Positions 17,651 through 34,905 of a stretch of DNA of 64,000 bases are shown piece after piece (positions within the stretch are counted from its first letter, which is position 1; every line of letters starts with the position of its first letter). A model generated the notes under the pieces. That model saw nothing but the letters and a program-made list of their open reading frames with translations, was not told where the DNA came from and searched no databases. This stretch comes from Dehalococcoidia bacterium (GTDB lineage: Bacteria > Chloroflexota > Dehalococcoidia > Lucifugimonadales > Australimonadaceae), in NCBI GenBank assembly GCA_022449765.1, contig JAKUPZ010000003.1, forward strand, positions 10,675 through 74,674, read 5' to 3'. The position numbers and the translations under genes were made by a program.

Positions 17651-18332
17651 GCGCCTCGTTCTCTAATTCAGTAGCGGTTTCAAGGTTAATGGGTGCGCTT
17701 CTATACCCATTTTTAGCATCAAATTTAATTTTCTCTTGCAATTTCATAATTCCATCCATCAAAGCTTCTGGCCTTGGGGGGCAGCCCGGTATAAACACGT
17801 CAACCGGTACCAAATGATCTACACCCATAACTACGCTATATGAGCGGTAATATGGTCCCCCGCTAGTAGCGCAAGTACCCATTGCAATAACCCACTTGGG
17901 GTCAGGCATTTGCTCATAAAGAAGCTTTATAGGCTCTGCCATTTTCTTAACTACCGTCCCAGCAACAATCATCACGTCGGATTGCCGAGGCGATGGCCAT
18001 GTGACAACGCCAAACCTATCCAAATCATGATGAGCCATATGAGTAGAAATCATTTCAATTGCACAGCAAGCTAACCCAAAGGTCAATGTCCAAAGTGAAT
18101 TGCTTCTGCCGAGCGCGGCTAATTGATCAACCGTCGAGGTAACCACCCCAGGTGCAGCACTTTTCAATAAATTAGGAGCCGGCGTATTCCCTCGTCCTTC
18201 TGGATTAGATGCATTCTCAGGGCTATCAAAAAACCGGCCTTCACTGTCACGATGCCACGCAGAAGGGCGAAAAATATGAAGCTCGTCTTTGTTGTTACTT
18301 TCTATCGCCAACGTAAAACTCCCTTCCGCCAT
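17628..18332 (-). CDS. nuoB: NADH-quinone oxidoreductase subunit B
   Basis: Motifs [20 protein letters not shown] and IPGCPPRPE (N2 cluster ligands). Long N-terminal extension. ATG 18332 overlaps nuoA by 31 nt, so the true start could be further downstream. Confidence 0.88.
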
Positions 18333-18676
18333 GCATAAACAACTCCTAAAAGTAAGATCAATATGAAAAGGATCATTTCATAAAACACGTACGAAGGAAT
18401 CCCTTTGTCAGCAAAAACTATAGCCCAAGGGAATAGAAACACGGCCTCTACATCGAAGATCAGAAAAAGGATTCCAAAAATATAGTAGCGAACATTGAAT
18501 TGCGTCCAATTCAATTTTGTGGGAAGAATCCCTGACTCGTATGCTATACCTTTCTTTTCCGAAGGGCGGCGGGGCGAAATTAACACAGACGCAAGCAACA
18601 TAAGTCCCATTGCGCCTAGCCCGACAAGAAAAGCTAATACAACTACTGTCCAGTTAATTACATAACCATCAGACAT
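18302..18676 (-). CDS. nuoA: NADH-quinone oxidoreductase subunit A
   Basis: 124-aa three-TM protein with [12 protein letters not shown] motif; first gene of the array. Confidence 0.88.
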
Positions 18677-18723
18677 GATTTCTGTATTGCACCAAAGCTA
18701 TTTTGCTTCCTCAACTATATCCG

Positions 18724-18759
18724 AATGATAACTAATATTTATAGCTATTAGTTATCATT
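18724..18759. repeat. 14-bp perfect inverted repeat (AATGATAACTAATA / TATTAGTTATCATT) with an 8-nt spacer
   Basis: Checked base by base: 18724-18737 is the exact reverse complement of 18746-18759. It lies 16 nt past the trpB stop and 48-83 nt upstream of the nuoA ATG. No U-tract follows it on the minus strand. Confidence 0.9.
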
Positions 18760-18774
18760 TCAATAAGGTTTAGC

Positions 18775-19962
18775 TTATGATTTAACGTTCATGATCGTAT
18801 CGAGATCTTTATCTCCTCGTCCACTCAAGCAAATCAGCACGTTTTGATCTGATCGAAGACTAGGAGCGAGGGTATTAATTACATACGCAACAGCATGGGA
18901 AGATTCTAAGGCCGGGATTATGCCTTCGTATTTACAAATCAATTTAAACGCCTCTATGGCATCGGTATCCGTAACATTTACGTATTCAGCACGACCCGAA
19001 TCTCGAAGCCACGCATGCTCAGGTCCAACCCCAGGGTAATCAAGGCCTGCAGAAATACTGTGCGTATCCTCTATTTGCCCATCGTCATTCTGAACAATGT
19101 ATGACATTGAGCCATGTAATACACCTAACCTGCCCCCTCCAATTGAAGCGGCATGCATATTGGTATCGACTCCATGTCCTGCAGCTTCAACGCCTATTAA
19201 TCTTACAGACTCATCGGGTATAAATTCGTAAAATTGCCCAATTGAGTTAGAACCTCCACCGACGCACGCAACAACAGCATCTGGAAGCTTGCCTAATGTC
19301 GTCAAAACCTGCGTCCTCGATTCCTTACCAATCACGCGCTGTAAGTCTCTTACCATCATAGGATACGGATGCGGTCCTACAGCGCTCCCAATAATGTAAT
19401 GAGTATCTTCTACGTTAGTTACCCAGTCTCTAATGGTTTCACTTACCGCTTCTTTTAATGTACGTGTTCCTGAGGTTACGGGACGAACTTCTGCACCTAG
19501 CATTTTCATCCTGTATACGTTAGGTGCTTGCCTGCGAATATCCTCTTCTCCCATGTAAACAACGCATTGCAGATCTAGAAGCGCACATACGGTTGCCGTT
19601 GCAACCCCATGCTGTCCGGCACCAGTTTCAGCAACTATACGACTCTTGCCCATGCGCTTTGCAAGTAGACCTTGCCCTAACGCATTATTGATTTTATGAG
19701 CTCCGGTATGCGCAAGGTCCTCTCGCTTTAAATAAATACCCGGGCCCCCTCCCAATGAAGTTAGTCGAACGGCATAGTGCAGAGGAGTTGGACGTCCTAC
19801 GTAATTACAAAGAAGATTGGTCAGTTCAGCTTGAAAATCTTCATCGACTTTGGCTGCAAGCCATGCTTCCGTCAATTCATGAAGCGCAGACATCAAAGTT
19901 TCGGGAACATACTGCCCTCCAAATATACCGAATCGTCCATTGCTATCCGGCAAAACGGTCAT
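18775..19962 (-). CDS. trpB: tryptophan synthase beta chain (TrpB1-type)
   Basis: Motifs HTGAHKINN (PLP lysine) and [13 protein letters not shown] shares one base with the trpF stop (TAATG). Confidence 0.95.
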
Positions 19963-20660
19963 TACGTTCTCCTAAAAAACCTAAATAGGCTATTACCCTT
20001 CTTCGCAAGGTCCCTGCCTCTTACTACTGCAGCAAAATCTATGATTTTGGCATGATCTTTCTGGCCATCAGTTTCAACTCCGCTGGAAGTATCGACTCCC
20101 CACGGGCGCACTTGATCCAAAGCCTGCCCGATATTGTCTATCGACACCCCCCCTGCAAGAGTCATTTCAAAAGAGTTGGCTAAATCTGCAGCTAGATCCC
20201 AATCAAAGCTTTGGCCAGTACCGCCAAATTCACCTGAAACTTTCGTATCAATTATGATTTTATGTCCAGCAAGCGCATGCCTTTGCTGCATAAGCATAAT
20301 TCTCGGCATTTGAGCAGCTATAGGAACCAAGGGATCCACAGTGATTACTTTATATATAGGAATGCTTATATGAGAGCAGTAGTCCATACTTTCATTCCCA
20401 CAGAGTTGAACAGCGTCAAGCTTAAGCATCTCTATATATTCATTAACTTGTTCAAAGGGCTGGTCTGCAAATAATCCAACAAACTCCGGTAAGTCCTTGG
20501 ACTTGCTTCTGACTTCTTTCAATACTGCCCCAGCCTCCACAACATTTAAGCTACGAGCCACGCCTTCAACAAATACAAGGCCTATTGAGTCAGCGCCTGC
20601 CTCTATAGCAGTTAGGATATGCTCACTCGTTCGAAACCCGCAGATCTTCAAGTGTGTCAC
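19962..20660 (-). CDS. trpF: phosphoribosylanthranilate isomerase
   Basis: Sequence LKICGF...GADSIGLVF is typical of PRAI, and the operon position fits. GTG start lies 1 nt after the trpC stop. Confidence 0.88.
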
Positions 20661-20661
20661 T

Positions 20662-21456
20662 TTACACTCCTGACAATTCTTGAACCTTCAAAGCTATATT
20701 ATCCGCCTTCATTAATGCCTCGCCAACAAGAATTGCATTAATCCCTTGTTTCTTTAAGGGGCTTACGTCAGCAGAGGAATTAATTCCACTTTCAGCAATA
20801 ATTATTTTCCCTGCGGGAATATAAGGTCGTAATTCTATTGCGAGGTTAGTATTAACCTCAAATGTTTTGAGATCCCTATTGTTAATTCCAATTATTTCTG
20901 CCCCATATTTTAATGCAATCTCTAATTCCGCATAATTATGTACTTCTACCACGCACTGTAACCAAATACTTTTTGCAACCGAAAGCATTTCGCCCAATAA
21001 AGTTTCATCAAGTGCGGCAACGATCAATAATGCCGCGTCGGCTCCATTTGCTCGTGCTTCAAACAGCTGATATGGGTCCAGTAAAAAATCTTTCCTTAGT
21101 ATCGGAGTTCTATGCTTCTCTGTACTTGCCTTTACCTGCCTCAAGTGGGCGAGACTCCCTTGGAAAAAGTCAGTTTCAGTCAGAACTGAAACTGCAGCCG
21201 CTCCATTTTCGCAATACGTTGAGGCTAACAACGCAGGATCATATTTTGTTGCAAGCAAACCTTTAGACGGTGAAGCCTTTTTAACTTCCGCAATAAGCCT
21301 CACTTTTTCACCCATTAACGCTCCACTTAAATTAAAAGGAAAAGGCGTTGTCTTAACTTGTGCCTCAAGTTCCGTCAATGGAATTGTCTCTTGATGACTT
21401 ACAATTTCTTTCCGCTTAGAAGAAAGAATTTTTTGCAGGAAAGTATCTTCAGCCAT
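20662..21456 (-). CDS. trpC: indole-3-glycerol-phosphate synthase
   Basis: Motifs IAEVKKASPSKG and LRKDF. Start moved to ATG 21456 (MAEDTFLQKIL), which overlaps the trpD stop as ATGGCTGA; the listed ORF starts at 21495. Confidence 0.9.
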   Translation of the reverse strand: MAEDTFLQKILSSKRKEIVSHQETIPLTELEAQVKTTPFPFNLSGALMGEKVRLIAEVKKASPSKGLLATKYDPALLASTYCENGAAAVSVLTETDFFQGSLAHLRQVKASTEKHRTPILRKDFLLDPYQLFEARANGADAALLIVAALDETLLGEMLSVAKSIWLQCVVEVHNYAELEIALKYGAEIIGINNRDLKTFEVNTNLAIELRPYIPAGKIIIAESGINSSADVSPLKKQGINAILVGEALMKADNIALKVQELSGV

Positions 21457-22486
21457 CCTTATCAAGCCTCTGAGTGAACTCTGCAAGTTCAGCAACTTTA
21501 TTCATAGCTTCTCCAGAGTTGACAACATCTCGTGAAAGCTCTACCCCTGATTTTAGGCTTTCAACTTTCCCAGAAGTAAACAAGGCAGCTGCCGAGTTTA
21601 GGAGAACTATGTCTCGCTCCGGAGAGTCACTAGATGAGAGTGACACGTCAAATTTTTCAACCCCATCCTCAGTAGTCTCAATTTGTAATTGTGCAAGATC
21701 AGCCAATTGAAGACCTAATTCTGTGGGATCAATCCTAAAATGCCTCACGTTTCCTTGCTTTACCTCCCATACCTGAGAAAAACCGGTAGTAGTGAGCTCA
21801 TCCAAACCATCATCTCCTCTTACTACCCAAGTAGACTTGGTACCTAGGTCCGCTAAAACGTTGGCAAGAGCTTCGGCAACGTCATAGCTAGCATCCTTAG
21901 GCTGGGCAACACCCAATACTTGATATTGTGCCCCTGCGGGGTTAGTTAATGGGCCAAGAAAATTAAAAATAGTCCTAATACCAAGTTCACGACGAGGCGG
22001 CCCAGCGAAACGCATAGCTGGATGAAAGGTTGGAGCAAACATGAACCCGATGCCAATCTCGTCAATACATCTAGCAACTGCACCAGGCGATAATTCCAGT
22101 TTTGTTCCTTTGCTTTCTAAAATGTCTGCTGCCCCCATTCTTCCCGAGGCAGCCCTATTTCCATGCTTAGCTACTTTGATACCTGCCGCAGCGGTAACAA
22201 AAGCAGAAGCAGTCGAAATGTTAAAAGTGTTTAATCCATCACCACCGGTGCCTACAATATCTATTACTTCGCCGACAATATTCACTTTTAAAGATTTTTC
22301 ACGCATTACTTTAGTCATGCCCAAAATTTCTTGAACCGATTCGCCTTTAAGCCGCAGCGCGACCAAAAATCCTGCAATTTGAGTTGGCGTCGCTTCTCCA
22401 GACATAATGGCTTCAGCGGCATCTGAAGCCTCTTTTTCAGTAAGTGCCTTTCCTTGAATTAGTAAATTAATTGCATCCTTAATCAT
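21449..22486 (-). CDS. trpD: anthranilate phosphoribosyltransferase
   Basis: Motifs DIVGTGGDGLNTFNIST and KHGNRA. Confidence 0.93.
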   Translation of the reverse strand: MIKDAINLLIQGKALTEKEASDAAEAIMSGEATPTQIAGFLVALRLKGESVQEILGMTKVMREKSLKVNIVGEVIDIVGTGGDGLNTFNISTASAFVTAAAGIKVAKHGNRAASGRMGAADILESKGTKLELSPGAVARCIDEIGIGFMFAPTFHPAMRFAGPPRRELGIRTIFNFLGPLTNPAGAQYQVLGVAQPKDASYDVAEALANVLADLGTKSTWVVRGDDGLDELTTTGFSQVWEVKQGNVRHFRIDPTELGLQLADLAQLQIETTEDGVEKFDVSLSSSDSPERDIVLLNSAAALFTSGKVESLKSGVELSRDVVNSGEAMNKVAELAEFTQRLDKDG

Positions 22487-23027
22487 CTAGGCTAACCACC
22501 TCAAGATATTCCAAAATAGGTAAATTACCTATTTCGTTAGTCCAAACATCAGGGTCTTGGCTAGATACAGATATTCCAGACGCACCCTTAACAGTAATCG
22601 TAGTACTGCTGCCGCTTTTCCCTTGGACCAAAAATTCCATGATTTCTCGTTTTTTACGAACCGGAATATTTAATCGATTTAACCCCAATCCCCCCAAAAC
22701 TACTACCGCTAAAAGTGGAGTGGAAATGATGCCCCTTTCTGCCCATATATCCTCGGCTAGCATCACAAACAAACCGAACGTAGAAACGATAGCGGCAAAA
22801 AGCATGATTTTGCCATTTCTTCTTTTGATCGATGTTATATCTATTTCACGGGTTGCAATAAAACGGCTTTCAAAATCCGATGCTTCCAAATCAGCAGGCA
22901 ATGAGTCGATTAATTCATATTTTTTATCATTTAGGCGTTCGACCAAATGATTGAAAACTTTAACTGCAGGAGCTTTAAGCACCTTTGATTCAACCCAGGG
23001 GTATTCCTTTGGATATTGATTAGCCAT
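22479..23027 (-). CDS. hypothetical two-TM membrane protein embedded in the trp operon
   Basis: Start set to ATG 23027 (MANQYPKEYPW), overlapping the trpG stop (ATGGCTAA). Its stop overlaps the trpD ATG (ATGATTAA). Two hydrophobic helices sit mid-protein. No family recognised. Confidence 0.6.
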   Translation of the reverse strand: MANQYPKEYPWVESKVLKAPAVKVFNHLVERLNDKKYELIDSLPADLEASDFESRFIATREIDITSIKRRNGKIMLFAAIVSTFGLFVMLAEDIWAERGIISTPLLAVVVLGGLGLNRLNIPVRKKREIMEFLVQGKSGSSTTITVKGASGISVSSQDPDVWTNEIGNLPILEYLEVVSLDD

Positions 23028-23595
23028 CAACGTTAATTTCAAGAAAGTTCTGCAATAATTTCTTCCCGTACTCGGTAATGATTGATTCCGGATGAAATTG
23101 AATACCTTCAACCTTTAATTGATTATGGCGGATCCCCATTATCACACCTGATTCAGAGGTCGCAGTGACAGACAAAACAGAAGGAAGCGTGTCTTTTTGA
23201 ACAGCAAGCGAATGATAGCGTATCGCTTTAAATTCATTCGGTATCCCTGCAAAAACCCCTTTCCCATCATGGGATATTTTACTGGTTTTTCCGTGGATTA
23301 TTTCACCTGCATTACTAATTTTGGCGCCATATGCACTTGCGATGCACTGGTGGCCCAAACAAACACCCAAAATTGGTACATATTGACCAATTTGAGTAAT
23401 TAATTCTGTTGAGATCCCCGCTTCACTCGGAGTACAGGGGCCCGGTGATATTACTATTTTTTCAGGCGAAAGGGACTTAATGTCTTTTACCATTAAATCG
23501 TCATTCCGAATCACCCGAATATCTGAACCAAGTTCGCCAAAAAATTGGTATAAATTATAGGTGAAGCTATCATAATTATCGATTATCAGTAGCAC
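23020..23595 (-). CDS. trpG: anthranilate synthase component II (glutamine amidotransferase)
   Basis: Class-I GATase motifs GVCLGHQ (catalytic Cys) and IQFHPES. GTG start at 23595. Confidence 0.93.
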   Translation of the reverse strand: MLLIIDNYDSFTYNLYQFFGELGSDIRVIRNDDLMVKDIKSLSPEKIVISPGPCTPSEAGISTELITQIGQYVPILGVCLGHQCIASAYGAKISNAGEIIHGKTSKISHDGKGVFAGIPNEFKAIRYHSLAVQKDTLPSVLSVTATSESGVIMGIRHNQLKVEGIQFHPESIITEYGKKLLQNFLEINVDG

Positions 23596-23609
23596 GATTT
23601 AATAACCCT

Positions 23610-25088
23610 TCACAAAGACTCTTGCTCTGCTAATGCAATTACTCGAAGAAGTGCATTCATTTTATGAAATGACTCTTGCCTTTCAAATTCTGGGTCCGAA
23701 TCAAAGACTACTCCGCCACCAGCTTGAACATACGCAATACCATTATTTATTACCATTGTTCTAATAGCTATGGCCGTATCCATATTGCCCGAATAACTAA
23801 AATACCCAACAGCTCCGGCGTAAAGACCCCGGTTCTCACCTTCAAGTTCTGAAATTATTTGCATCGCTCTAATTTTAGGCGCTCCAGAAACTGTTCCTGC
23901 CGGAAAGCATGCGCGAAGAGCGTCAAAACAGGACATCTCTTCCTTAAGCTGTCCCGTCACATGCGATACTAAATGCATGACATGTGAGTATTTTTCAACC
24001 TCTAACATCTGCGTTACCTGAACGGTACCTGGCTTACTGACGCGACCGATATCATTTCGGCCCAGATCTAAAAGCATTACATGTTCAGCTATTTCTTTTC
24101 CGTCCTGAAGAAGCTCTTGCTCTAACGCATTATCCTCTTCATTATCCTTCCCGCGACGTCTGGTCCCCGCAATTGGATGCGTCTCTACCATCCCATTCTC
24201 GGAGCGTACAAGCATTTCAGGAGAGGCTCCTACTATTGAATAATCCTCTATTTGTAAAAAATACATATAGGGGGAAGGATTTATTGCTCGCAAGGAACGA
24301 TAGAAATTAAAAGGGGCTGACTTAACTTTTATTGCAAGCCTTTGGGAAGGCACTACTTGTATTATATCGCCCGCAACTATGTATTCTTTAGCGCGATCAA
24401 CCATCTCATGGTACTCGGCTTTTGTCTTATTGGACTGAAGATGAAAATCCATTGCATCCGGATTAGACATTTGGCCTGGGAAAATATGATTCTCATCCGA
24501 AGGCAAAGGACTATTCAACCTCTCAATTAGTTCGTCGATTCGATCTATTGCGGATTCATAGGCTTTACTAGGATTATCTTGAATTCTTGCGATGGCAATA
24601 ACTTTTATTTTATGCGTGACATGATCAAAAATTAGCAAAGAATCCGTAAAAAAGAATACTGATTCAGGGATAGAATATGCTCCGGAGCTAAATGTATCTA
24701 CTGTGGGCTCAAAATGACGAATTGTCTCATACGATAAAAATCCCACTGCTCCGCCTACAAATGGAGGTAAACCCTCTATCTCTGCAATTTTATGGCGGCT
24801 TAATTCTGTTTCTATTTCGCAAAGAGGATCAACGTTTTGAGAATCCATATCCGTCTTGAGAATCTTGTAAGGGTTTGTCCCCATGAAGCTATAGCGCGCA
24901 AGCCGCTCGCCTCCTTCCGCGCTTTCTAAGAGGAAGGAATTTTGGCGGTTGGAACCTTGCGTTATTTTTAAATATGCGGAAACCGGCGTTTCAAGATCAG
25001 CTAAGACTTCTTTGTATACCGGTATAAGGGTATAACCTTCTAAGCCTAGCTTTAAAAATTCGTCAATTGAAATAGAATATTGCGTCAT
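23610..25088 (-). CDS. trpE: anthranilate synthase component I
   Basis: 492 aa; chorismate-binding C-terminal region with RGLYAGAVGYF and IRTMV...AYVQAGGGVV. Confidence 0.93.
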   Translation of the reverse strand: MTQYSISIDEFLKLGLEGYTLIPVYKEVLADLETPVSAYLKITQGSNRQNSFLLESAEGGERLARYSFMGTNPYKILKTDMDSQNVDPLCEIETELSRHKIAEIEGLPPFVGGAVGFLSYETIRHFEPTVDTFSSGAYSIPESVFFFTDSLLIFDHVTHKIKVIAIARIQDNPSKAYESAIDRIDELIERLNSPLPSDENHIFPGQMSNPDAMDFHLQSNKTKAEYHEMVDRAKEYIVAGDIIQVVPSQRLAIKVKSAPFNFYRSLRAINPSPYMYFLQIEDYSIVGASPEMLVRSENGMVETHPIAGTRRRGKDNEEDNALEQELLQDGKEIAEHVMLLDLGRNDIGRVSKPGTVQVTQMLEVEKYSHVMHLVSHVTGQLKEEMSCFDALRACFPAGTVSGAPKIRAMQIISELEGENRGLYAGAVGYFSYSGNMDTAIAIRTMVINNGIAYVQAGGGVVFDSDPEFERQESFHKMNALLRVIALAEQESL

Positions 25089-25122
25089 ACTTAGTCCAGG
25101 GATACTACTAGCAAGTCTAATT

Positions 25123-28100
25123 CTAACCTATTGCGCGAGGAGTACTCGCTTTTAGAAGAGCGTCTCTCTTTGCTCGTTGCTGCTCCCTAGGAAGAGGAGG
25201 AGCAACATGCGGAAGTGGCGAAATTTTACGGAATTTTGGTAAGTAGATTGACCAGTTAGCTAAAATTTCATCTGCTCTTTGGCTATGTGTAAGTTCAGCA
25301 TGTCGCGAAACAAGGGCATACAACAAGTCTTCATCATCGGCGTCAGAAATGGTTGTGGCACCAACCATTTCAGGATTTATGTTGTGCTGTAACTCTTCAT
25401 CCAAATCCAAAACATACACGATGCCGCCAGACATCCCTGCACCAAGGTTCCTGCCAGTAGAGCCTAGAATCACTACCACTCCGCCCGTCATATATTCACA
25501 AGCGTGATCCCCTGCGCCCTCGACTACACTCCAAGCACCCGAGTTCCGTACTGCAAAGCGTTCTCCCGCAATACCTGCGGCAAACATTCTCCCGCCTGTA
25601 GCTCCATATAAAACCGTATTCCCCAGGATCACATTGTCATGAGCGTGGAATTTTGCTTTTGAAGAAGGCCTTATAACCAATTCACCCCCATGCATACCTT
25701 TACCAACATAGTCATTTGCCTCTCCTTCTAAAAGCAGATGCATGCCGTTGATCAAAAAGGCACCAAAACTTTGGCCAGCAGAACCTGTGAGCCTCATTTC
25801 TATACTATTTTCAGGCAATCCTTCATCGCCATGTATTCTTGCTATCTCGCCTGAGATTCTAGCTCCCACAGTTCGATGTACGTTGCGTATTTCATGCTCG
25901 ATTTTCACGGGTTCTTGCAATGTAATTGCAGACTTTACAAGCGGCATTAATTTGTCATCAAGAATTTCATCACTCTCGTCATCATTGCGCTCAATTATTT
26001 TAGTCCTTGGCTTGCTTCCGGAAGGGTCAGGAACCGCGAGTAATTTAGACAAATCAACCAAATTTGCTTTTTCATTACCCGGAATATGCTTTTGGGAAAG
26101 CAAGTCAGAGCGCCCTATCATCTCTTCTACCGTACGAAACCCAAGCTGAGCCATCAATTCTCGCAACTCTTCAGCTACGTAAAAGAGATAGCGAATAAGC
26201 ATCTCTGAACTACCCCAGAACTTTTTACGCAAGTCCTCATCTTGGGTCGCGACCCCAACAGGGCAAGTATTCAAATGGCACTGCCGTGCAACTTGACAAC
26301 CAACCGCAACCATAGCCTGAGTGCCAAATCCAAATTCTTCGGCACCAAGAAGCGCAGCGACCGCAACATCTCTACCACGCCTGAACCCGCCATCTGTTCT
26401 TAATGTAACGCGACCACGGAGATCGTTCATAACCAAAACTTGGTTAGCTTCTGCCAAACCTAATTCCCATGGAGAGCCTGTATATTTTATTGAAATCCAA
26501 GGTGACGCACCTGTTCCGCCATCGGCGCCTGAGATCAATACGTAATCTGCGTACCCTTTTGCCACTCCTGCAGCAACTGTACCAACGCCGGCTTCAGCAA
26601 CAAGTTTTACAGCTACAGTAGCTCTTGGATTAACTATCTTAAGATCGTAAATTAGCTGTTTAAGGTCTTCTATCGAATAGATATCGTGATGGGGTGGGGG
26701 TGATATAAGAGGAACACCCGGCTGCGTCTGCCGTGCACGTGCAATAATTTCTGTAACCTTATGTCCAGGGAGCTGCCCACCTTCACCTGGCTTAGATCCT
26801 TGAGCCATTTTAATTTCTAAAACCTCAGCCATTGCCAAATATTCAGGAGTGACGCCAAAACGACCTGAGGCTATTTGTTTCATTTTGCTTCCGGTTTGTT
26901 CTCCGTTTCGAAGCTCTCTAAATCTTCTGGGATCTTCTCCCCCTTCTCCACTCCCACTTTTACTACCAATGCGATTAAATGCAACCGCAATGGCTTCGTG
27001 CGCCTCTATGCTAAGCGCCCCGAAGGACATTGAGCCCCCATTAAATCTTTTGACGATTTCTTTCGCCGGTTCAACTTCCTCCAGAGGGACAGGTGTTCCT
27101 TGAGGTTTAATTTCTAGTAAGTCCCGTAACGCAATGGGATCGGTATTGCCGATTTGTTCAAGGTAGTTATTGTAGCCATCACGGCCGGTCCCATTTTCTT
27201 CGAGCGACTTGTGCAAAGTTCTGACACTTATTGGGGAAAAAGCATGAGGCTCGCCATTTCTTCGGTATCGGTAAAACCCAAAGTCATCAAGTTTTAATTG
27301 ATCCTCAGCAGCAAATCCTGACTGATGAAGCGCTATAGTCTCCCGAGCAATTTCATCAAACCCGATCCCTGCAACTGGGGAAGTGGTACCAGAGAAACAG
27401 TAATCCACTACCTCTTGATCTAATCCAATTGCTTCAAAAATCTGAGCCCCGTGGTATCCCGTAACAGTAGAAATTCCCATTTTCGACATTATTTTTAGAA
27501 GCTGCTTATTGATTGTTTTTATGTATGTCGCAAGAGCTCTATCTTCTCCCAATTCTTGATCATGCCCTTGTTCTATTAACTCTTTAATAGTGTCAAATGC
27601 CATATAGGGATTGATTGCACTAACTCCATAACCTATCAGCAGTGCAAACTGATGCATTTCTCTTGCATCTGCAACTTCAGCAATCAAAGATGCCTGCAAT
27701 CGTTTTCTAACTTTGATGAGGTGATGATGTACTGCACCAGCAGCAACAAGCATAGGAATAGCAGCGAAATCCTTATTGACCCCTCTGTCACTTAAAATTA
27801 TTAGCTCTTTACCTTGATCTATCGCAGTTTCAGCGCCTTGGCATATTTGTTCAATCGCATTCTTAAAACCATCCGAACCTTTACCTACGGAGAATAGGGT
27901 AGGTATTGTGGCTGTGCTCAGTGAGTTCCTATCTGTCTTGATTGCACTCAATTCCTCGTTCGTGAGAATTGGCGAGCTCAATCGTATAAGTGCTGCATGA
28001 TCTTCCGTATCCGATAATAAGGATTTGCGAGCTCCTAAATATGTAAATAGAGACATAACTAAATGTTCTCGGTACGAATCAATAGGAGGATTCGTAACTT

Positions 28101-29646
28101 GAGCAAACCGCTGGCGGAAATAGCTGTATATTAACCTTGGCTTGGTTGCCAAAACGGACAAGGGCGTATCATCGCCGAGGGAACCCACCGGCTCAACTCC
28201 CTCAAGGTATAGAGGCCGCAGTATTAAATGTGCCTCTTCTGTCGTATAAGCAAAGCTCTTTTGAATAGCCTGTAGGTCTGCTCCCGTAAAGGTTTTTTCC
28301 TGTTTTTTAGTTTTTAAGCCATCTATTGAAATCATTTTATTCTGAATCCAATTACCGAACGGCTGTGCAGCAGCAAGCGAAGCCTTTATTTCGTCATTCT
28401 TAAGAAGCTTCCTATTAACCGTATCAACTGCAATCATTTGGCCTGGGCCCAACCGTCCTTTTTCAACGACTTTGGCATCATCTATAGCCGTTGCCCCTAC
28501 TTCGGAAGACATCACAAAATTGTTATCTTCATCAATCTTGTACCGTGCAGGCCTTAACCCATTCCGGTCTAATACGGCTGCAGCAGTAATCCCATCCGTA
28601 AATGAAACTGCTGCAGGACCATCCCAAGGCTCTGTAAGACATGCACCATACTCATAGAAAGCACGGAGAGCGGGATCCATATTAGGCATATTTTCCCATG
28701 CTTCAGGGATTAAAACCGCCATCGAATGCAAGAGTCCTCTACCTGAAAGCGCTAAGAGTTCTAATGCATTATCTAAGCTTGCTGAATCACTGAAAGCTTC
28801 TTGAATAACCGGGAAGATTTCCGCAGCTTCGTTACCCCATATAGACTCTTCAAATTCACGCGCACGCATCCACCCACGGTTACCGTCAAGCGTATTAATT
28901 TCACCATTATGAGCTAGCATTCTGAACGGTTGTGATAATTCCCAATTGGGAAATGTATTCGTGCTATACCGCTGGTGGAGCAAGGCAATTGCCGTTCGAA
29001 AGTTCTTGTCAGCAAGGTCGAGGTAAAACTCTTCTAGCTGAGGCGCTACTAATAGTCCTTTATATACAATAGTGCGGCAAGATAGCGATGCAATATAACA
29101 CTCGATTTGATTTGCAAGAAACGCTCGTTCTGCAATTTTCCTTGCCACAAAAAGCTTGCGCTCAAACCAAATAGGATCGTGAGAATGGGGAGAAGACACT
29201 AAAATATGCTCAATTTGAGGCAAAGTAGCCAATGCTTGCTCGCCGAGAATAGATTCATCTACTGGAACTGGTCTCCATCCAATAATATTTAAGCCCCTAC
29301 CGGATATAGCTTCCTCTACTATTTTGCGAGCTCTAGGTTGATCACTCTGAGGAAGGAAAATAACACCTACGCCCAGATCTCCATCATTCTTTATATCGGC
29401 TTCAAATTTTTTAGCAGCCGGTATAAAAATCTCTGAAGGAATCTGGGTAAGAACTCCTGCCCCATCCCCTGTCTTTGCATCAGAAGAAACTGCCCCTCGG
29501 TGAGTTACATTAACAACCGTCTCCAATGCTTTATCCAAAACATCACGGCTCCTTTCACCTGAGATGTTGGCAACAACACCGACCCCACAAGCATCGTGCT
29601 CGTACTTGGGTGAATATAATGTCCCTTTTGATTTTGGATAGTTCAA
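25123..29646 (-). CDS. gltB: glutamate synthase large chain (GOGAT alpha / ferredoxin-type candidate)
   Basis: 1507 aa. N-terminal Ntn Cys (HDACGVG), central FMN/Fe-S domain and C-terminal GXGXG beta-helix domain. Listed start is TTG 29646 with GGAG 9 nt upstream. Confidence 0.93.
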   Translation of the reverse strand: MNYPKSKGTLYSPKYEHDACGVGVVANISGERSRDVLDKALETVVNVTHRGAVSSDAKTGDGAGVLTQIPSEIFIPAAKKFEADIKNDGDLGVGVIFLPQSDQPRARKIVEEAISGRGLNIIGWRPVPVDESILGEQALATLPQIEHILVSSPHSHDPIWFERKLFVARKIAERAFLANQIECYIASLSCRTIVYKGLLVAPQLEEFYLDLADKNFRTAIALLHQRYSTNTFPNWELSQPFRMLAHNGEINTLDGNRGWMRAREFEESIWGNEAAEIFPVIQEAFSDSASLDNALELLALSGRGLLHSMAVLIPEAWENMPNMDPALRAFYEYGACLTEPWDGPAAVSFTDGITAAAVLDRNGLRPARYKIDEDNNFVMSSEVGATAIDDAKVVEKGRLGPGQMIAVDTVNRKLLKNDEIKASLAAAQPFGNWIQNKMISIDGLKTKKQEKTFTGADLQAIQKSFAYTTEEAHLILRPLYLEGVEPVGSLGDDTPLSVLATKPRLIYSYFRQRFAQVTNPPIDSYREHLVMSLFTYLGARKSLLSDTEDHAALIRLSSPILTNEELSAIKTDRNSLSTATIPTLFSVGKGSDGFKNAIEQICQGAETAIDQGKELIILSDRGVNKDFAAIPMLVAAGAVHHHLIKVRKRLQASLIAEVADAREMHQFALLIGYGVSAINPYMAFDTIKELIEQGHDQELGEDRALATYIKTINKQLLKIMSKMGISTVTGYHGAQIFEAIGLDQEVVDYCFSGTTSPVAGIGFDEIARETIALHQSGFAAEDQLKLDDFGFYRYRRNGEPHAFSPISVRTLHKSLEENGTGRDGYNNYLEQIGNTDPIALRDLLEIKPQGTPVPLEEVEPAKEIVKRFNGGSMSFGALSIEAHEAIAVAFNRIGSKSGSGEGGEDPRRFRELRNGEQTGSKMKQIASGRFGVTPEYLAMAEVLEIKMAQGSKPGEGGQLPGHKVTEIIARARQTQPGVPLISPPPHHDIYSIEDLKQLIYDLKIVNPRATVAVKLVAEAGVGTVAAGVAKGYADYVLISGADGGTGASPWISIKYTGSPWELGLAEANQVLVMNDLRGRVTLRTDGGFRRGRDVAVAALLGAEEFGFGTQAMVAVGCQVARQCHLNTCPVGVATQDEDLRKKFWGSSEMLIRYLFYVAEELRELMAQLGFRTVEEMIGRSDLLSQKHIPGNEKANLVDLSKLLAVPDPSGSKPRTKIIERNDDESDEILDDKLMPLVKSAITLQEPVKIEHEIRNVHRTVGARISGEIARIHGDEGLPENSIEMRLTGSAGQSFGAFLINGMHLLLEGEANDYVGKGMHGGELVIRPSSKAKFHAHDNVILGNTVLYGATGGRMFAAGIAGERFAVRNSGAWSVVEGAGDHACEYMTGGVVVILGSTGRNLGAGMSGGIVYVLDLDEELQHNINPEMVGATTISDADDEDLLYALVSRHAELTHSQRADEILANWSIYLPKFRKISPLPHVAPPLPREQQRAKRDALLKASTPRAIG

Positions 29647-29674
29647 AAAAATACTCCGAGCTAATCAAGCCTCG

Positions 29675-31021
29675 TTATAAATTCGGCAAATACCTTTTTA
29701 GTTCATAATCAGTAACTGCCGACCGATAACGATCCCACTCAATCCGCTTATTCTGCATAAGAGATTCATACGTATAGTCGCCTAATGCAAGACGTAGCAC
29801 ATCACTAGTTTCTGCTAGTTGCAATGCCTCGTATAAACTTCCTGGAAGATGACGGATCCCTTTATTTTTCCGTTCAGCCTCCGTCATTTCATTAACATCC
29901 ATGTCTGCAGGCTGTACTTCAGGATATTCCTTAATTATACCCTCGAGACCGGCCGTCAGCATTGAAGCAAACGCCAAATAGGGATTGCAAGCCGGATCTG
30001 GCTGGCGAAATTCTATTCGCACCGAACTTTCTTTCCCCGGTCTGTACGCAGGAATTCTAATTAAATCGGACCTATTCACTGGGGCCCATGTAGTAAATGA
30101 CGGTGCTTCAAAGCCAGGAACTAAGCGCTTATACGAATTAACCCATTGATTGCAAACACACGCGATTTCAGGAGCATGCCACAAAAGACCTGCAATAAAT
30201 TTTTGAGCAACTGCGGATAGTTTAAATTCAGCAGAAGAATCAAAAAATATATTTTCTTCTCCTTTTGATAGAGACATGTTTACATGCATTCCATTGCCAT
30301 TTTGGCCTTCAAAGGGTTTGGGCATAAAGGTAGCGTAAACACCACGGCTCATTGCAACTTCTTTGACAACTTGCCTGTACGTCATCACCGTGTCGGCCAT
30401 AGTAAGTGCATCTGTATGACGCAGGTCAATTTCATGCTGGCTATTAGCTACTTCATGATGGCTATACTCTACCGGAATACCCATCTCTTCCAAGGACAAT
30501 ACCGTCTCACGTCGAAGGTCAGATGCGGTATCCAAAGGCGTGGTCAGATCAAAATACCCTCCCACATCAAGAGGCGTCGGATCATCCGCAGACTTCAGAT
30601 AAAAATGCTCTAGCTCAGGACCAACCTGAAATTCGAAGCCCAAGTCTGCAGCACGTCCTAACGCAATCTTCAAAACATGCCTAGGGTCTCCTTCAAATGG
30701 TTCTCCGGTTGGCCGAAGAATATCGCAAAACATTCTTGCAACTGCATTTTGCCTCGGTCTCCAAGGAAGAATAGAAAATGTCGTAGGGTCAGGCATTGCC
30801 ACCATGTCACTTTCATCGCGGCGAGCAAAACCTGCAACAGTAGAACCATCGAAGGACATGCCTTTTTCCATTGCTCCTTCAAGTTCAGCGACCGTTATAG
30901 CAAACCCCTTTAAGTTACCTAAAATATCTGTAAACCAAAGGCGAATAAATTTAACGTCGTTCTCTTGTGCACTCCTGAGAACATACTGTCGTGCTTCTTC
31001 GCTATTATTATCAGCGGCCAT
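29675..31021 (-). CDS. glnA: glutamine synthetase, type I (B. subtilis-like GSI-alpha pattern)
   Basis: Beta-grasp plus catalytic domains. The segment EMTEAERKNKGIRHLPGSLYEAL resembles the non-adenylylated GSI-alpha form. Start moved to ATG 31021 (MAADNNSEE); the listed TTG 31042 lies next to the terminator U-tract. Confidence 0.9.
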   Translation of the reverse strand: MAADNNSEEARQYVLRSAQENDVKFIRLWFTDILGNLKGFAITVAELEGAMEKGMSFDGSTVAGFARRDESDMVAMPDPTTFSILPWRPRQNAVARMFCDILRPTGEPFEGDPRHVLKIALGRAADLGFEFQVGPELEHFYLKSADDPTPLDVGGYFDLTTPLDTASDLRRETVLSLEEMGIPVEYSHHEVANSQHEIDLRHTDALTMADTVMTYRQVVKEVAMSRGVYATFMPKPFEGQNGNGMHVNMSLSKGEENIFFDSSAEFKLSAVAQKFIAGLLWHAPEIACVCNQWVNSYKRLVPGFEAPSFTTWAPVNRSDLIRIPAYRPGKESSVRIEFRQPDPACNPYLAFASMLTAGLEGIIKEYPEVQPADMDVNEMTEAERKNKGIRHLPGSLYEALQLAETSDVLRLALGDYTYESLMQNKRIEWDRYRSAVTDYELKRYLPNL

Positions 31022-31044
31022 CGGCCCCCCGTAACTTCCCAACC

Positions 31045-31072
31045 AAATAAGAAAACCGGGGCGTCGCCCCGG
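31045..31072 (-). terminator. rho-independent terminator downstream of ppdK (inside the glnA leader region)
   Basis: Minus-strand RNA CCGGGGCG-A-CGCCCCGG (31072-31056), a 6-7 bp GC stem, followed immediately by UUUUCUUAUUU (31055-31045). Confidence 0.65.
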
Positions 31073-31082
31073 CGGCTACAAA

Positions 31083-31111
31083 ATCCTAGGAGATTGTGAA
31101 ACTTGTGTCAA
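31083..31111 (-). promoter_or_regulatory. sigma70-like promoter candidate for glnA
   Basis: Minus strand: TTGACA (31111-31106), 17-nt spacer, TAGGAT (31088-31083). Hexamer match only, with no experimental support. Confidence 0.35.
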
Positions 31112-31146
31112 TTATTTTGTGATATTTTTCACGACACTGAAGTTGC

Positions 31147-34110
31147 TTATGATTTAATCAAGCCCAAAGAGCTCTGTGCGGCAGCTAGCCTAGCAACAGG
31201 CACCCGGAAAGGAGACGCACTTACATAGTTCAAGCCAAGCTCATTGCAAAATGCAATGCTTAAAGGATCACCTCCATGCTCACCACAAATCCCAATTGTG
31301 AAATCGGGGTTTACCTGCCTAGCTTCGTAAGTTGCCATAGACATTAGCTTCCCAACCCCTGAAACATCAAGGCTATTAAATGGATTCTTGGGAAGAATGT
31401 CTGTATCAACGTAATGATTCAGGAATTTACTTTCAGCATCATCTCGGCTAAATGCAAAGGTCATTTGCGTCAAATCATTAGAGCCGAATGAAAAAAATTC
31501 TGCCTCTAAAGCAATCTCCCCTGCAGTGAGTGCCGCCCGAGGTACTTCAATCATTGTTCCAAATAAATATGAGACTTTAACTCCTAGTGCATCTCTGGTT
31601 CTACTTGCCATTTCTCTTAGCCGCGGACGCAGCCATTTCAACTCATTAACATGAGAAACAATAGGAATCATTATTTCCGGTGAAACGTCCAACCCTTCTT
31701 CCTTGAGTCTACAGGCGGCAGTTACGATCGCACGGACCTGCATTTCGTATATTTCAGGCATTGTTAAACCTACTCTGCATCCTCGATGACCAAGCATAGG
31801 ATTAGACTCATGAAGCTTTTCCACAAGTTCTAGCATTTCTTCTTTCTCATCAAGCAATCGATGGAGCTTCTCTTCACTCAAGACATCCACATGATCAGCA
31901 TGTTCGGAAAGCCAATCTACTATTTTCTCACCTGATGGAACCTTCATTAACTCGCTAGCAGCCTCATTCAATAGGTCTCTGCCCCGTTCAACCCAGGCTG
32001 AAGCTTTACCCTCTCCTTCTAATCTGCGCTGTAAGTCCGAAACTTGGTGCAGCAAGGATTCATAGCTAGGTAAAAATTCATGTAAGGGAGCGTCTAATAA
32101 TCTAATTACAACAGGTAAGCCTGCCATTGCCTTGAAAATGCCATAAAAGTCGCCTGTCTGGAAGCTCTCTAATTTGGATAATTCCTGATGGAAATTTATT
32201 ACAGCTTCAGAATTATCAATTTCTTCATTGGCAATTTTTAGTTTTTTCTGTAGTGCGTGGCGTTCAGATGCTGGTGCATCTTGAAGAAGATGCTCGATTG
32301 ACTTTGCATGATCAATTAGCTGTGAAGCTTCGGGTCCAATCGCCAGCAATTTTTGTATGTGTGGAAGCCTTTCTTCTGCAAAAAACATATGCTCTGTTCT
32401 GCAAAGACCTATTCCCTCGGCTCCATTGGCCCTTGCAAGAGAAGCATCCTCAGGCGTATCAGCATTCGCCCAAACTTTTAATCTCCTTGCGCTATCGGCC
32501 CAGCTTAGAAGCTCATTTAATTCTTCTAGATCCTCTGATAAAGGTGCTACTGTATCGATTAGTCCTAAAAACACTTCACCGGTGGCCCCATCAATACTGA
32601 TGAGATCACCTTCTTTAATTAATTTCCCACGTGACGTCGCAGACATCCCATCTTGTTCAAAATGTAATTCTTCACAACCTACTACGCACGGCTTTCCTAG
32701 ACCTCGTGTCACCACCGCAGCATGACTCGTCATGCCTCCTCTGCTAGTAAGGACACCTGATGCTTTAATTATTCCATGCACATCATCGGGATTTGTTTCA
32801 TGACGTACGAGAATAACCTTCTCCCCAGACTCTGCCTTCAAAACTGCCCTATCAGGGTCCATAACGGCAATCCCTGAGGCTGCCCCTGGGGACCCTCCTA
32901 CTCCGACTGCAAATAAGTCTCCGCTTTTCATTGAAGCTTGCTTTGCAGTAGGATCAAAATGGGGCATTAATACTGCAGAAACCTCAGATGCTTCAATCCT
33001 TCCGAGTGCCTGCTCTTTGGAAATTACCCCTTCATGTACAAGCTCAACTCCTATTCGGACAGCGGCGGGAGCAGTTCGTTTAGCTGCTCTAGTTTGTAGG
33101 ATGTATAACTTGCCACGCTCTACGGTAAATTCAATATCTTGAACATCTTTGTAATGCTGCTCAAGCAGTCGCGCCGTCTGCTCTATTTCTTCAAATATTT
33201 TGGGCCAAGTGTCCTTGAGGCTTTCTATCCTGTGAGGGGTCCTGATGCCAGCAACAACATCCTCGCCTTGCGCGTTGGGTAAAAATTCACCATAAAGCAT
33301 CTTTTGACCCGTTGCTGGGCTTCGAGAAAAAAGAACCCCTGTTCCACTATCGTCACCTAAATTGCCGAAAACCATTGCCATGATTACACAAGCAGTCCCG
33401 ACGTCATGTGAAATACCTTGAAAATCTCTGTAAGTAATAGCGCGAGGGTTATTCCAAGAATCAAAAACGGCATCAACTGCTGCTTTCAGTAATTCCCAAG
33501 GATCTTGTGACAGTTCACTACCCGTATCCTCTTTTATTACGTCTTTAAATTCAGAGATTAGCCCTTTGAGCGCATCGGGCTGGAGTTGGTAGTCAAATTC
33601 AACCCCAAGTTTATTTTTTGTTATCTCTAAAAGTTCTTCAAATCGATGTTTTTCTATGCCGAGCACAACATTACCGAATCCTTGAATAAGCCGACGATAT
33701 GCATCCAAGGCCGGCCGTTCGTCACCCATCATCTCAGCTACGCCTTGAACAGTGCTATCTACAACTCCCATATTGAGAATGGTGTCCATCATGCCTGGCA
33801 TCGATACTGGGGCTCCGGAGCGAACAGAAATAACCAATGGCGCCTTAGGGTCGCCAAATTTTCGGCCTGTCTGTTCTTCCAAAATGCTTACATGGCGTAC
33901 AATTTCGTCCCATAAACCTGAAGGAAATTGATGGCCTAAACGAAAATACTCTAGTGATGTTTCAGTAGTTATGACGAAACCAGGAGGAACTGAAATTCCT
34001 ATCCTAGCCATTTCACTTGCGTGAGCCCCTTTTCCACCGAGAAGGTTCACCATGGTGGCTCCGCCTTCCTGGAGGCGGTATATCATCTTGCCGACCGAAG
34101 TGGTCGTCAT
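31147..34110 (-). CDS. ppdK: pyruvate, phosphate dikinase (unusually long, 987 aa)
   Basis: Motifs GGKGAHASEM, phosphohistidine GGMTSHAAVV, NPMLGHRGCR and catalytic GICGEHGG. ATG 34110 is preceded by GGAG. Confidence 0.93.
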   Translation of the reverse strand: MTTTSVGKMIYRLQEGGATMVNLLGGKGAHASEMARIGISVPPGFVITTETSLEYFRLGHQFPSGLWDEIVRHVSILEEQTGRKFGDPKAPLVISVRSGAPVSMPGMMDTILNMGVVDSTVQGVAEMMGDERPALDAYRRLIQGFGNVVLGIEKHRFEELLEITKNKLGVEFDYQLQPDALKGLISEFKDVIKEDTGSELSQDPWELLKAAVDAVFDSWNNPRAITYRDFQGISHDVGTACVIMAMVFGNLGDDSGTGVLFSRSPATGQKMLYGEFLPNAQGEDVVAGIRTPHRIESLKDTWPKIFEEIEQTARLLEQHYKDVQDIEFTVERGKLYILQTRAAKRTAPAAVRIGVELVHEGVISKEQALGRIEASEVSAVLMPHFDPTAKQASMKSGDLFAVGVGGSPGAASGIAVMDPDRAVLKAESGEKVILVRHETNPDDVHGIIKASGVLTSRGGMTSHAAVVTRGLGKPCVVGCEELHFEQDGMSATSRGKLIKEGDLISIDGATGEVFLGLIDTVAPLSEDLEELNELLSWADSARRLKVWANADTPEDASLARANGAEGIGLCRTEHMFFAEERLPHIQKLLAIGPEASQLIDHAKSIEHLLQDAPASERHALQKKLKIANEEIDNSEAVINFHQELSKLESFQTGDFYGIFKAMAGLPVVIRLLDAPLHEFLPSYESLLHQVSDLQRRLEGEGKASAWVERGRDLLNEAASELMKVPSGEKIVDWLSEHADHVDVLSEEKLHRLLDEKEEMLELVEKLHESNPMLGHRGCRVGLTMPEIYEMQVRAIVTAACRLKEEGLDVSPEIMIPIVSHVNELKWLRPRLREMASRTRDALGVKVSYLFGTMIEVPRAALTAGEIALEAEFFSFGSNDLTQMTFAFSRDDAESKFLNHYVDTDILPKNPFNSLDVSGVGKLMSMATYEARQVNPDFTIGICGEHGGDPLSIAFCNELGLNYVSASPFRVPVARLAAAQSSLGLIKS

Positions 34111-34263
34111 TAACTAGGCTCCTTAAAATATGTTTTCAGTACCAACTTACGAGTGTCCATCGCCATATTTTGACTACCGGCGACGGCAAAAGATGCTAGC
34201 ACTATCGATGCCCGCAGTCTAGCGCCGTACAGCGAAAATAGAAAAGCATTTTCGCATCATCTA

Positions 34264-34905
34264 TTAATCATTATTGCCTAAATACTCGCCGCGATAATTG
34301 GGAGGTAATAGCTGCGCAATACTGCGCATAATGAGTTCTGTGTTATGCGTAAGTACGGATCGCTCCAATTTCGTATCGCGTGCTTCCAAGTAAAATGGCT
34401 CACCTATAAAAACTTTTACTTTTTTGAAATGGAATGGAATCCTAATAAACGACGTAATACTTTCAGTTCCTGTAATTCCCACCGGCACAACAGGAACTTT
34501 CGCTTGCATAGCAATATATGCAATTCCATCATTTCCTTTACTTAAATGGAATGGGCTTCTAGTTCCTTCTGGAAAAATTAATAACACATGACCTTTCGTT
34601 AAAATAGCTTGGGCCCATTTAATTGCCTCGATGTCTACTCCCGTCCTGTTAACGGGATAGACGTGTAAGGCACGTAGCATGCGTGAAATTGCTCTGGTTT
34701 TGAAAAGGCTCTTCTTAGCCATAAAAAAGACTGGCCTGTTAATGGAGTAAACAATGAGAGGAGGATCAGCGATGCTTTGATGGTTGCACGCAATTATAAA
34801 TCCTCCTTCTCGAGGAATATGGTGCCTCCCTATTACTTGCACTTGACCAAATATTGGAAGAAAAATAAACGAAAGGATTCGGCCTAGTCGGTAGAGTAAG
34901 TCCAA
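34264..34905 (-). CDS. plsC: 1-acyl-sn-glycerol-3-phosphate acyltransferase
   Basis: Motifs NHQSIAD (HX4D) and FPEGTRS. TTG start 34905 is preceded by GGAAGGAGG and abuts the cmk stop. Confidence 0.85.
   Translation of the reverse strand: MDLLYRLGRILSFIFLPIFGQVQVIGRHHIPREGGFIIACNHQSIADPPLIVYSINRPVFFMAKKSLFKTRAISRMLRALHVYPVNRTGVDIEAIKWAQAILTKGHVLLIFPEGTRSPFHLSKGNDGIAYIAMQAKVPVVPVGITGTESITSFIRIPFHFKKVKVFIGEPFYLEARDTKLERSVLTHNTELIMRSIAQLLPPNYRGEYLGNND

Follow-up and report, generated by a model that had tools for sequence, protein, structure and literature searches.

We analysed a 64,000-nucleotide stretch of contig JAKUPZ010000003.1, from a Dehalococcoidia bacterium (hereafter the window), in which a tryptophan (trp) operon is interrupted by a gene, here called X, that encodes a 182-residue membrane protein. 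Read along the coding strand, the genes run in the order glnA, gltB, trpE, trpG, X, trpD, trpC, trpF, trpB and nuoA, followed by the rest of the nuo genes. X begins with an ATG 5 nt ahead of the trpG stop, and its TAA falls within codons 2–3 of trpD, giving an 8-nt overlap on either side; the trpD/trpC junction has the same form (Table 1). The first-pass annotation, made from the sequence alone, had described this 182-codon open reading frame (ORF), both of its overlaps and the like architecture at trpD/trpC, and each of these is confirmed. A hidden Markov model (HMM) of X matches once in the whole 64-kb window.

X is a membrane protein restricted to the SAR202-type clade, with no detectable relatives, that is found only in the slot between trpG and trpD, and we regard its gene as almost certainly genuine, under selection and devoted to the trp operon. 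For an open frame of 182 codons the calculated chance probability is ~2e-5, given ~0.058 stops per codon at 43% guanine plus cytosine (GC). A word-indexed search of 5.8 billion proteins returned four X clusters (99% identity, 97% for a fragment, 73% and 58%), and the three full-length clusters are all 182 residues long. Measured against the 73% and 58% orthologues, the ratio of non-synonymous to synonymous substitution (dN/dS) by the Nei–Gojobori method is 0.10–0.21, with dS of 1.1–3.2. The claim that the ORF is a real gene, and the test of purifying selection among relatives that had been proposed for it, were therefore both upheld: the gene is kept, full length, across relatives.

Further members came from an HMM search run exhaustively over 1.84 billion representatives, which gave 16 X proteins at E < 1e-3 (15 of 180–231 residues and one 104-residue fragment), and from a profile search, which gave 36 clusters at 90% identity (181–198 residues, except for one fragment of 119). 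Family members thus mostly span 181–198 residues, with an upper limit of 231, and share start position and predicted fold as well as length. None of the 36 clusters carries a Pfam domain, and every label reads ‘hypothetical protein’. The sole match among GTDB genomes is a metagenome-assembled genome of the SAR202 cluster, and the closest metagenome matches are marine, including some from Tara Oceans. That the ORF might be an untranslated chance frame or an annotation artefact could be argued from the lack of a Shine–Dalgarno sequence upstream of X in the window. We give this reading practically no credence and consider it effectively refuted by the comparative data, namely the dN/dS of 0.10–0.21, the 36 clusters, the common length, start and predicted fold, and a structural model with a mean predicted local distance difference test score (pLDDT) of 82.

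The genomic context of X is equally constant. All eight diverse members that we looked up (21–73% identical to the X of the window) lie in the order trpE-trpG-X-trpD-trpC-trpF-trpB, followed by nuoA wherever the available sequence extends that far. In every X locus except L012, where a 100-residue ORF intervenes, the stop of X overlaps with the start of trpD; its own start touches or overlaps the stop of trpG everywhere but in L016, in which the called trpG falls 13 nt short of X. The 8-nt overlap with trpD recurs in L001 and L007, such overlaps being typical of the low-GC clade, and high-GC members have a 4-nt ATGA overlap with trpD together with an abutting or overlapping trpG stop. The intervening ORF of L012 (6770-7072) is itself a truncated second copy of X, comprising the second transmembrane helix and strands beta4-beta5; it is closest to a different X subfamily, that of P0008 (BLASTP 3e-9; hhalign against family alignment A3, E 1.4e-4), showing that tandem duplication has occurred in the slot.

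In order to avoid ascertainment through X itself, we retrieved 80 metagenome loci through TrpD and scanned them with the X and TrpG HMMs. In a neighbour-joining tree of TrpD, the X-bearing loci form one clade. X is present in 15 of the 16 assessable loci of this SAR202-type clade and in none of the 63 outside it. The exception, L032, is nested in the clade; here X is absent and the TGA of trpG shares one base with the ATG of trpD (L032:440-460). Because the TrpD of L032 is 72–76% identical to that of X-bearing neighbours, we interpret this as a secondary loss of X. The survey of trpG–trpD junctions across Chloroflexota that the first-pass annotation had proposed thus bears the gene out within its clade, save for this loss, but not beyond it. 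L032 also contains a 350-nt stretch between trpD and trpC with only a low-complexity ORF.

Identity between X proteins is 21–38% where that of TrpD is 58–67% and that of TrpB 73–79%, so that X diverges about twice as fast as the neighbouring Trp enzymes. Such a rate would be less in keeping with an enzyme than with a protein that binds or scaffolds others.

We then considered how X is expressed. Its start has no Shine–Dalgarno sequence (−0.4 kcal/mol, the weakest value among the ten starts compared), and its translation therefore probably depends on re-initiation by ribosomes terminating at trpG. Two high-GC members (L012 and L013) show, by eye, a purine-rich GAGGA or GGAGG upstream of X. By contrast with X, trpD owns a strong Shine–Dalgarno sequence, which lies within the 3′ end of X (Table 1), and its translation is thus presumably not strictly dependent on X. 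No convincing terminator was found between trpG and trpD, and the count of promoter-like sequences was below the shuffled expectation, leaving no internal promoter that would isolate X. It had been argued earlier that coupling on both sides implies stoichiometric expression with the Trp enzymes. The tight coupling architecture stands; equal stoichiometry, deduced from that architecture, is not assured, given that X lacks a Shine–Dalgarno sequence and trpD has its own.

Table 1. Features of the trp operon and of gene X. Coordinates refer to the window unless a metagenome locus (L) or contig is named.
Feature	Coordinates	Strand	Basis or remarks
Gene X, 182-residue membrane protein, undescribed family	22479..23027 (including stop)	(-)	ORF translation MANQYPKEYPW...LEVVSLDD; orthologues; dN/dS
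X residues 1-63, N-terminal half, predicted cytoplasmic	22839..23027	(-)	beta 11-17, helix 21-34, beta 38-40, beta 51-63; 24% pairwise identity
X residues 66-91, juxtamembrane KRRNGK motif and transmembrane helix 1	22755..22832	(-)	AlphaFold 2 helix, hydropathy, conservation
X residues 102-119, transmembrane helix 2 with invariant GG-x-G, most conserved segment	22671..22724	(-)	AlphaFold 2; 56% identity
X residues 120-182, C-terminal half, predicted cytoplasmic	22482..22670	(-)	basic stretch with P122 and R127; beta 124-137, 142-154; three short helices
ATGGCTAA, X start/trpG stop, 8-nt overlap	23027-23020	(-)	X ATG 23027-23025; trpG TAA 23022-23020
ATGATTAA, trpD start/X stop, 8-nt overlap	22486-22479	(-)	trpD ATG 22486-22484; X TAA 22481-22479
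ATGGCTGA, trpD/trpC junction, same form	21456-21449	(-)	TrpD end ...LDKDG; TrpC start MAEDTF
GAGGTGG, trpD Shine–Dalgarno sequence within X 3′ end	22496..22502	(-)	duplex −10.1 kcal/mol
trpE, anthranilate synthase component I	23610-25088	(-)	
trpG, anthranilate synthase glutaminase subunit, 191 residues	23020-23595	(-)	orthologues with Pfam GATase domain
trpD, anthranilate phosphoribosyltransferase, 345 residues	21449-22486	(-)	
trpC	20662-21456	(-)	
trpF	19962-20660	(-)	
trpB, then nuoA	18775-19962	(-)	
Family Y copies in the trpG|trpD slot	L033:3370-4011, L046:861-1442, L082:3483-4004, L093:595-1149, L095:3306-4004, L097-L100		
SNF-family gene	L014:2160-3431, L015:1985-2458, contig of P0034		

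Outside the X clade, trpG and trpD are adjacent or overlapping in many loci. Fourteen of the survey loci there, however, carry a second family, Y, in the same slot. Y comprises 194 clusters, some labelled Chloroflexi or Dehalococcoidales; it has no Pfam match and ranges over Dehalococcoidia and other Chloroflexota. The proteins are mostly of 170–280 residues (the L039 copy has only 62), with one to three N-terminal transmembrane helices, a basic helix (KMAKEMREQRY) and a cytoplasmic beta-rich domain bearing RNxGxGPA and Y(R/K)D(I/V)Y motifs, and the gene usually overlaps trpD by 4 nt. In each of four further members, chosen on long contigs, Y directly precedes trpD, and the order is trpE-trpG-Y-trpD in all three contigs that reach upstream. 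Y thus occupies the trp-operon slot in 18 of 18 contexts and was seen nowhere else. We rejected the possibility that X and Y are homologues, since none of the comparisons (small and large Y alignments, and X circularly permuted) gave an hhalign probability above 0.4–0.5%. The two nevertheless share the trpG|trpD slot, the strand, a membrane anchor, a cytoplasmic domain, the lack of a Pfam match and an exclusive association with trp operons. They differ in layout, Y having N-terminal helices and one contiguous domain whereas in X a central hairpin splits the soluble domain. By analogy between the families, their coincidence in one slot suggests that the shared useful property is a membrane anchor with a cytoplasmic domain beside the two enzymes.

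The first-pass annotation had also raised a link between X and operons lacking trpA. A tblastn search of the window with E. coli TrpA did not find the gene; the same query matches trpA in other loci, which serves as a positive control for this negative. In SAR202 loci nuoA comes straight after trpB, and the operon has no trpA (18302-19962 in the window; L001, L007 and L012-L015), and in non-SAR202 Chloroflexota loci trpA follows trpB. Because Y operons retain trpA after trpB, the association of a membrane protein with the absence of trpA is a clade effect, and the proposed link does not hold. X as a replacement for TrpA is ruled out by its size and fold, and again by the retention of trpA in operons with Y.

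The junction has received other genes as well. In one clade an Amidohydro_2 family gene of ~280 codons shares 4 nt with the start of trpD (L059:1608-2447, L066:3162-4004, L070:1341-2180), and in L059 it comes after a copy of Y (820-1536); this family includes aromatic-acid decarboxylases such as ACMSD. In some Chloroflexota, ParE/RelE-type toxin genes lie immediately upstream of trpD (L038:852-1223, L072:3683-3964, L092:154-429), the assignment being confirmed by Pfam for L072 and made by visible similarity for L038 and L092; upstream of the toxin gene, L038 and L072 also show a match to trpG. A 158-residue ORF that resembles TsaA/YaeB by eye overlaps the trpD start by 8 nt in L056 (707-1183). 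The trpG|trpD junction therefore also accepts selfish modules, here the ParE toxin genes.

These occupants bear on the possibility that X is a hitchhiker, or ‘moron’, with a membrane function outside tryptophan metabolism, which would have been inserted once in the SAR202 ancestor and retained through the entanglement of its frame with the stop codon of trpG and with the start and ribosome-binding site of trpD. Such a gene would be at home in a permissive slot that holds ParE toxin, Amidohydro_2 and TsaA-like genes in other lineages; X could be dispensed with in L032, and in many lineages the slot is empty. The trpD Shine–Dalgarno sequence inside X would constrain deletion of the gene, and genes of unknown role in trp operons are known and are discussed as possible morons by Kagan et al. 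(2008; PMC2395257). Entanglement, however, shields only the ends of a gene, yet dN/dS is 0.1–0.2 over the whole ORF, and length is steady at 181–198 residues in nearly all members. Furthermore, neither X nor Y was seen at other genomic locations, and chance insertion poorly explains how two unrelated anchored families are each exclusive to one slot. We consider passive retention of this kind unlikely, although a serious contender. Even if X is a hitchhiker, the locus remains a clear example of a permissive junction gathering membrane-protein, toxin and enzyme genes.

The wider neighbourhood shows some regularities of its own. Ahead of the trp genes, and on their strand, lie those for PPDK, glnA and gltB (25123-34110 in the window), and the nuo genes come after; a terminator-like hairpin (31055-31073) separates the PPDK gene from glnA. 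This PPDK-glnA-gltB-trp-nuo array is kept across low-GC SAR202 loci, and several high-GC loci lack gltB. Directly upstream of trpE, several high-GC SAR202-type loci carry an SNF-family (sodium:neurotransmitter symporter) gene, fragmented in two (Table 1), whose product could be an operon-linked transporter of amino acids or of tryptophan. In one SAR202-type contig (L013:7618-8205), trpD and trpC are separated by a gene for dCTP deaminase (DCD), another non-trp insertion.

The anatomy of X was examined with an AlphaFold 2 model built from a 35-sequence alignment (pLDDT 82.4; predicted template-modelling score 0.67). The model places helices at residues 66–91 and 102–119 (TM1 and TM2), where they coincide with two hydrophobic peaks (15-residue Kyte–Doolittle means of ~2.3 and ~2.0) that are conserved family-wide; the two hydrophobic helices recognized in the first reading of the sequence are thus real. 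A transmembrane helical hairpin is accordingly predicted in the middle of the protein. The mean number of lysine and arginine residues across the family is 4.0 just before TM1 and 3.9 just after TM2, compared with 1.0 in the loop. Because this charge flanks the hairpin, the positive-inside rule predicts that the N- and C-terminal halves are both cytoplasmic. As the halves would then share one side of the membrane, and both supply strands in the model, we infer that they may form one small alpha+beta domain interrupted by the hairpin.

Conservation is unevenly distributed along X. Mean pairwise identity is 56% in TM2, 39–43% in the juxtamembrane flanks, 33% in TM1 and 16–24% in the soluble halves. 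R69 and G72 (of the RRxGK motif), G112 and G113 are invariant in family alignments A2 and A3; G115 is invariant in A2 and at least 90% conserved in A3, where V109, P122 and R127 are invariant, and R98, in the predicted external loop, is nearly invariant in A2. Members accordingly share a signature of beta-alpha-beta-beta, transmembrane hairpin and beta-beta, with R-x-x-G-K before TM1, GG-x-G-L in TM2, and a proline and an arginine after TM2.

In agreement with the earlier remark that X belongs to no recognized family, scans against Pfam, NCBIfam (0 families), PDB sequences, PADLOC and PHROGs gave nothing at threshold, those of PADLOC and PHROGs remaining at noise level (E ≥ 0.012) with no defence or phage family. 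PF09534 Trp_oprn_chp/TIGR02234, which we take to be the family of the mycobacterial trp-operon protein Rv1610, is not listed for X or the 35 members (Pfam at E ≤ 10; NCBIfam, 0 families). DUF6232 (PF19744) aligns with residues 63–145 at 12.6 bits, against a gathering threshold of 27.4 bits (E 0.19), and in only two of the 35 members; we rejected it because the match is sub-threshold and confined to closest relatives.

Comparison of structures, of the AlphaFold and Foldseek type suggested at the outset, likewise gave no significant match to a characterized family. Foldseek searches with two AlphaFold 2 models against PDB and BFVD returned nothing with E < 1e-3, and query-normalized TM-scores (TMq) did not exceed 0.38. 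The best resemblances are to DUF4468 (4e6f), the AMPK core chain 2oox_A, the N-terminal domain of BamC (2yh6), TraT (9fs5) and START-like proteins. For the four named structures E is 3e-3 to 0.1 and TMq 0.25–0.38, with target-normalized scores (TMt) of up to 0.51; TMt is 0.37–0.51 for 2oox_A, BamC and DUF4468. All four resemble X in the order of their elements, beta-alpha-beta-beta...beta-beta-alpha. As model-based resemblances these are weak: they suggest fold class only, that of generic alpha+beta modules, and point, again weakly, to alpha+beta modules of protein interaction. Membership of the SRPBCC/START helix-grip group was rejected (best E 1.5e-3, TMq 0.21–0.30, no Pfam match).

The distribution of conserved residues raises the possibility that X forms, through its hairpin, an oligomeric channel or gate for anthranilate, indole or tryptophan, serving salvage, overflow or cross-feeding. 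Conservation in the protein peaks in the hairpin and its juxtamembrane flanks, with G112, G113 and G115 invariant in A2 and R98 nearly so, and the gene sits exactly between those for the anthranilate producer and consumer. TraT, an outer-membrane lipoprotein that forms a decameric membrane ring, consists of an alpha+beta domain with an inserted helical hairpin, and X matches it (9fs5_A) with E 3.1e-3 and probability 0.75. The TMq of this match is only 0.25, however, and it falls short of E < 1e-3 and TM > 0.5. Sequence scans showed no similarity of X to a transporter or channel family, and the one to three transmembrane helices of Y are variable and poorly conserved, and thus anchor-like and not pore-like. 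We therefore think a channel or gate improbable.

Equally, the soluble domain might bind tryptophan, anthranilate or indole and make X a membrane-bound sensor or regulator that modulates the activity or stability of anthranilate synthase or TrpD. No Rfam element, attenuator or T-box was found in 18000-35000, so that another regulatory layer is conceivable; many of the low-scoring Foldseek matches are helix-grip ligand domains (START, Bet v 1, PYL, CoxG), and X evolves fast, like many regulators. Those helix-grip matches nonetheless have TMq of 0.2–0.3 and probabilities mostly below 0.6, few residues of the soluble domain are invariant and could form a pocket, and TrpE normally carries its own tryptophan feedback site. 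A sensory or regulatory role seems to us more improbable still than a channel.

We favour, tentatively and at clearly less than even chances, a reading in which X is a dispensable accessory that docks or organizes TrpG and/or TrpD at the membrane. Ribosomes finishing trpG would re-initiate on X; the product would insert in the cytoplasmic membrane, probably as an oligomer formed through the conserved GG-x-G helix; and its cytoplasmic domain would dock or organize TrpG (anthranilate synthase) and/or TrpD there, so that the producer and the consumer of anthranilate are brought to the membrane by a protein that would be neither an enzyme nor essential. Of the roles raised in the first-pass annotation, which included an anchor, a transporter and a sensor, the data favour anchoring or docking, though weakly, because two unrelated anchored families are each exclusive to the slot, because the soluble domain of X evolves fast without enzyme-like invariant residues, because the weak fold resemblances are to protein-interaction modules, and because the slot separates activities that are fused in enteric bacteria.

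Several observations weigh against docking. The proposal is drawn from gene context, and we know of no biochemical reason for anthranilate synthase or TrpD to be at the membrane. The pathway works without such a protein, given that X was lost in L032 and that, in roughly half of the other Chloroflexota loci, trpG and trpD are immediate neighbours; this loss, the occupant-free lineages and the other occupants, which mark the junction as a permissive insertion site, keep alive the idea that X is a hitchhiker. The hairpin is the best conserved part of X (TM2 56% as against 16–24% in the soluble halves), which is unexpected for a mere anchor and fits a function within the membrane, thereby keeping the channel or gate in play. 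Lastly, no Foldseek match reaches significance (E > 1e-3 and TMq ≤ 0.38 throughout). A broader version of the proposal, in which Chloroflexota run the anthranilate step at the membrane and X and Y are accessory subunits of a metabolon or of an anthranilate/indole gate, is speculative and, in our estimate, rather unlikely; the gate option, if true, bears on metabolite cross-feeding among ocean oligotrophs.

The tryptophan pathway is among the best-studied operons and is taught as seven soluble activities; X adds to it a family, without annotated relatives in the libraries searched, that is fixed in one trp slot across an abundant deep-ocean clade. In E. coli and other enteric bacteria, TrpG and TrpD are fused in one polypeptide. 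The junction is the same as that occupied by X, and the fusion indicates that proximity of the two activities can be selected; it is, however, covalent, with no extra domain or membrane segment, whereas here a separate membrane protein is encoded between separate genes. The occurrence of X, and of the unrelated but analogous Y in sister lineages, suggests that a partner anchored in the membrane has repeatedly conferred a selective advantage at the anthranilate step.

We found no description in the literature of X, of Y or of a membrane protein encoded at trpG|trpD in Chloroflexota, and nothing relevant on SAR202 tryptophan genes or membrane-associated anthranilate synthase. Non-trp genes of unknown function do occur in trp operons, and it has been suggested that they might help in catalysis or in assembling complexes (Kagan et al., 2008, PMC2395257, citing Xie et al., 2003). 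The cases that we noted in that paper differ from X in that the inserts lie at trpB|trpA or trpF|trpB, none of them at trpG|trpD, and the word ‘membrane’ does not occur in its main text. The closest counterpart that we are aware of is the membrane-protein gene Rv1610 of Mycobacterium, in the operon trpE, Rv1610, trpC, trpB, trpA (PMC5573416), a precedent that qualifies the first-pass statement that no membrane protein belongs to the textbook Trp pathway. Both proteins are integral to the membrane, have no assigned role, are encoded inside a trp operon and are conserved within one phylum. They differ in phylum, in architecture and in slot (trpE|trpC as against trpG|trpD) and have no sequence relationship, X being placed outside the Trp_oprn_chp family because the HMM tests were negative. 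X could nonetheless offer a first functional handle on this similar actinobacterial trp-operon membrane protein.

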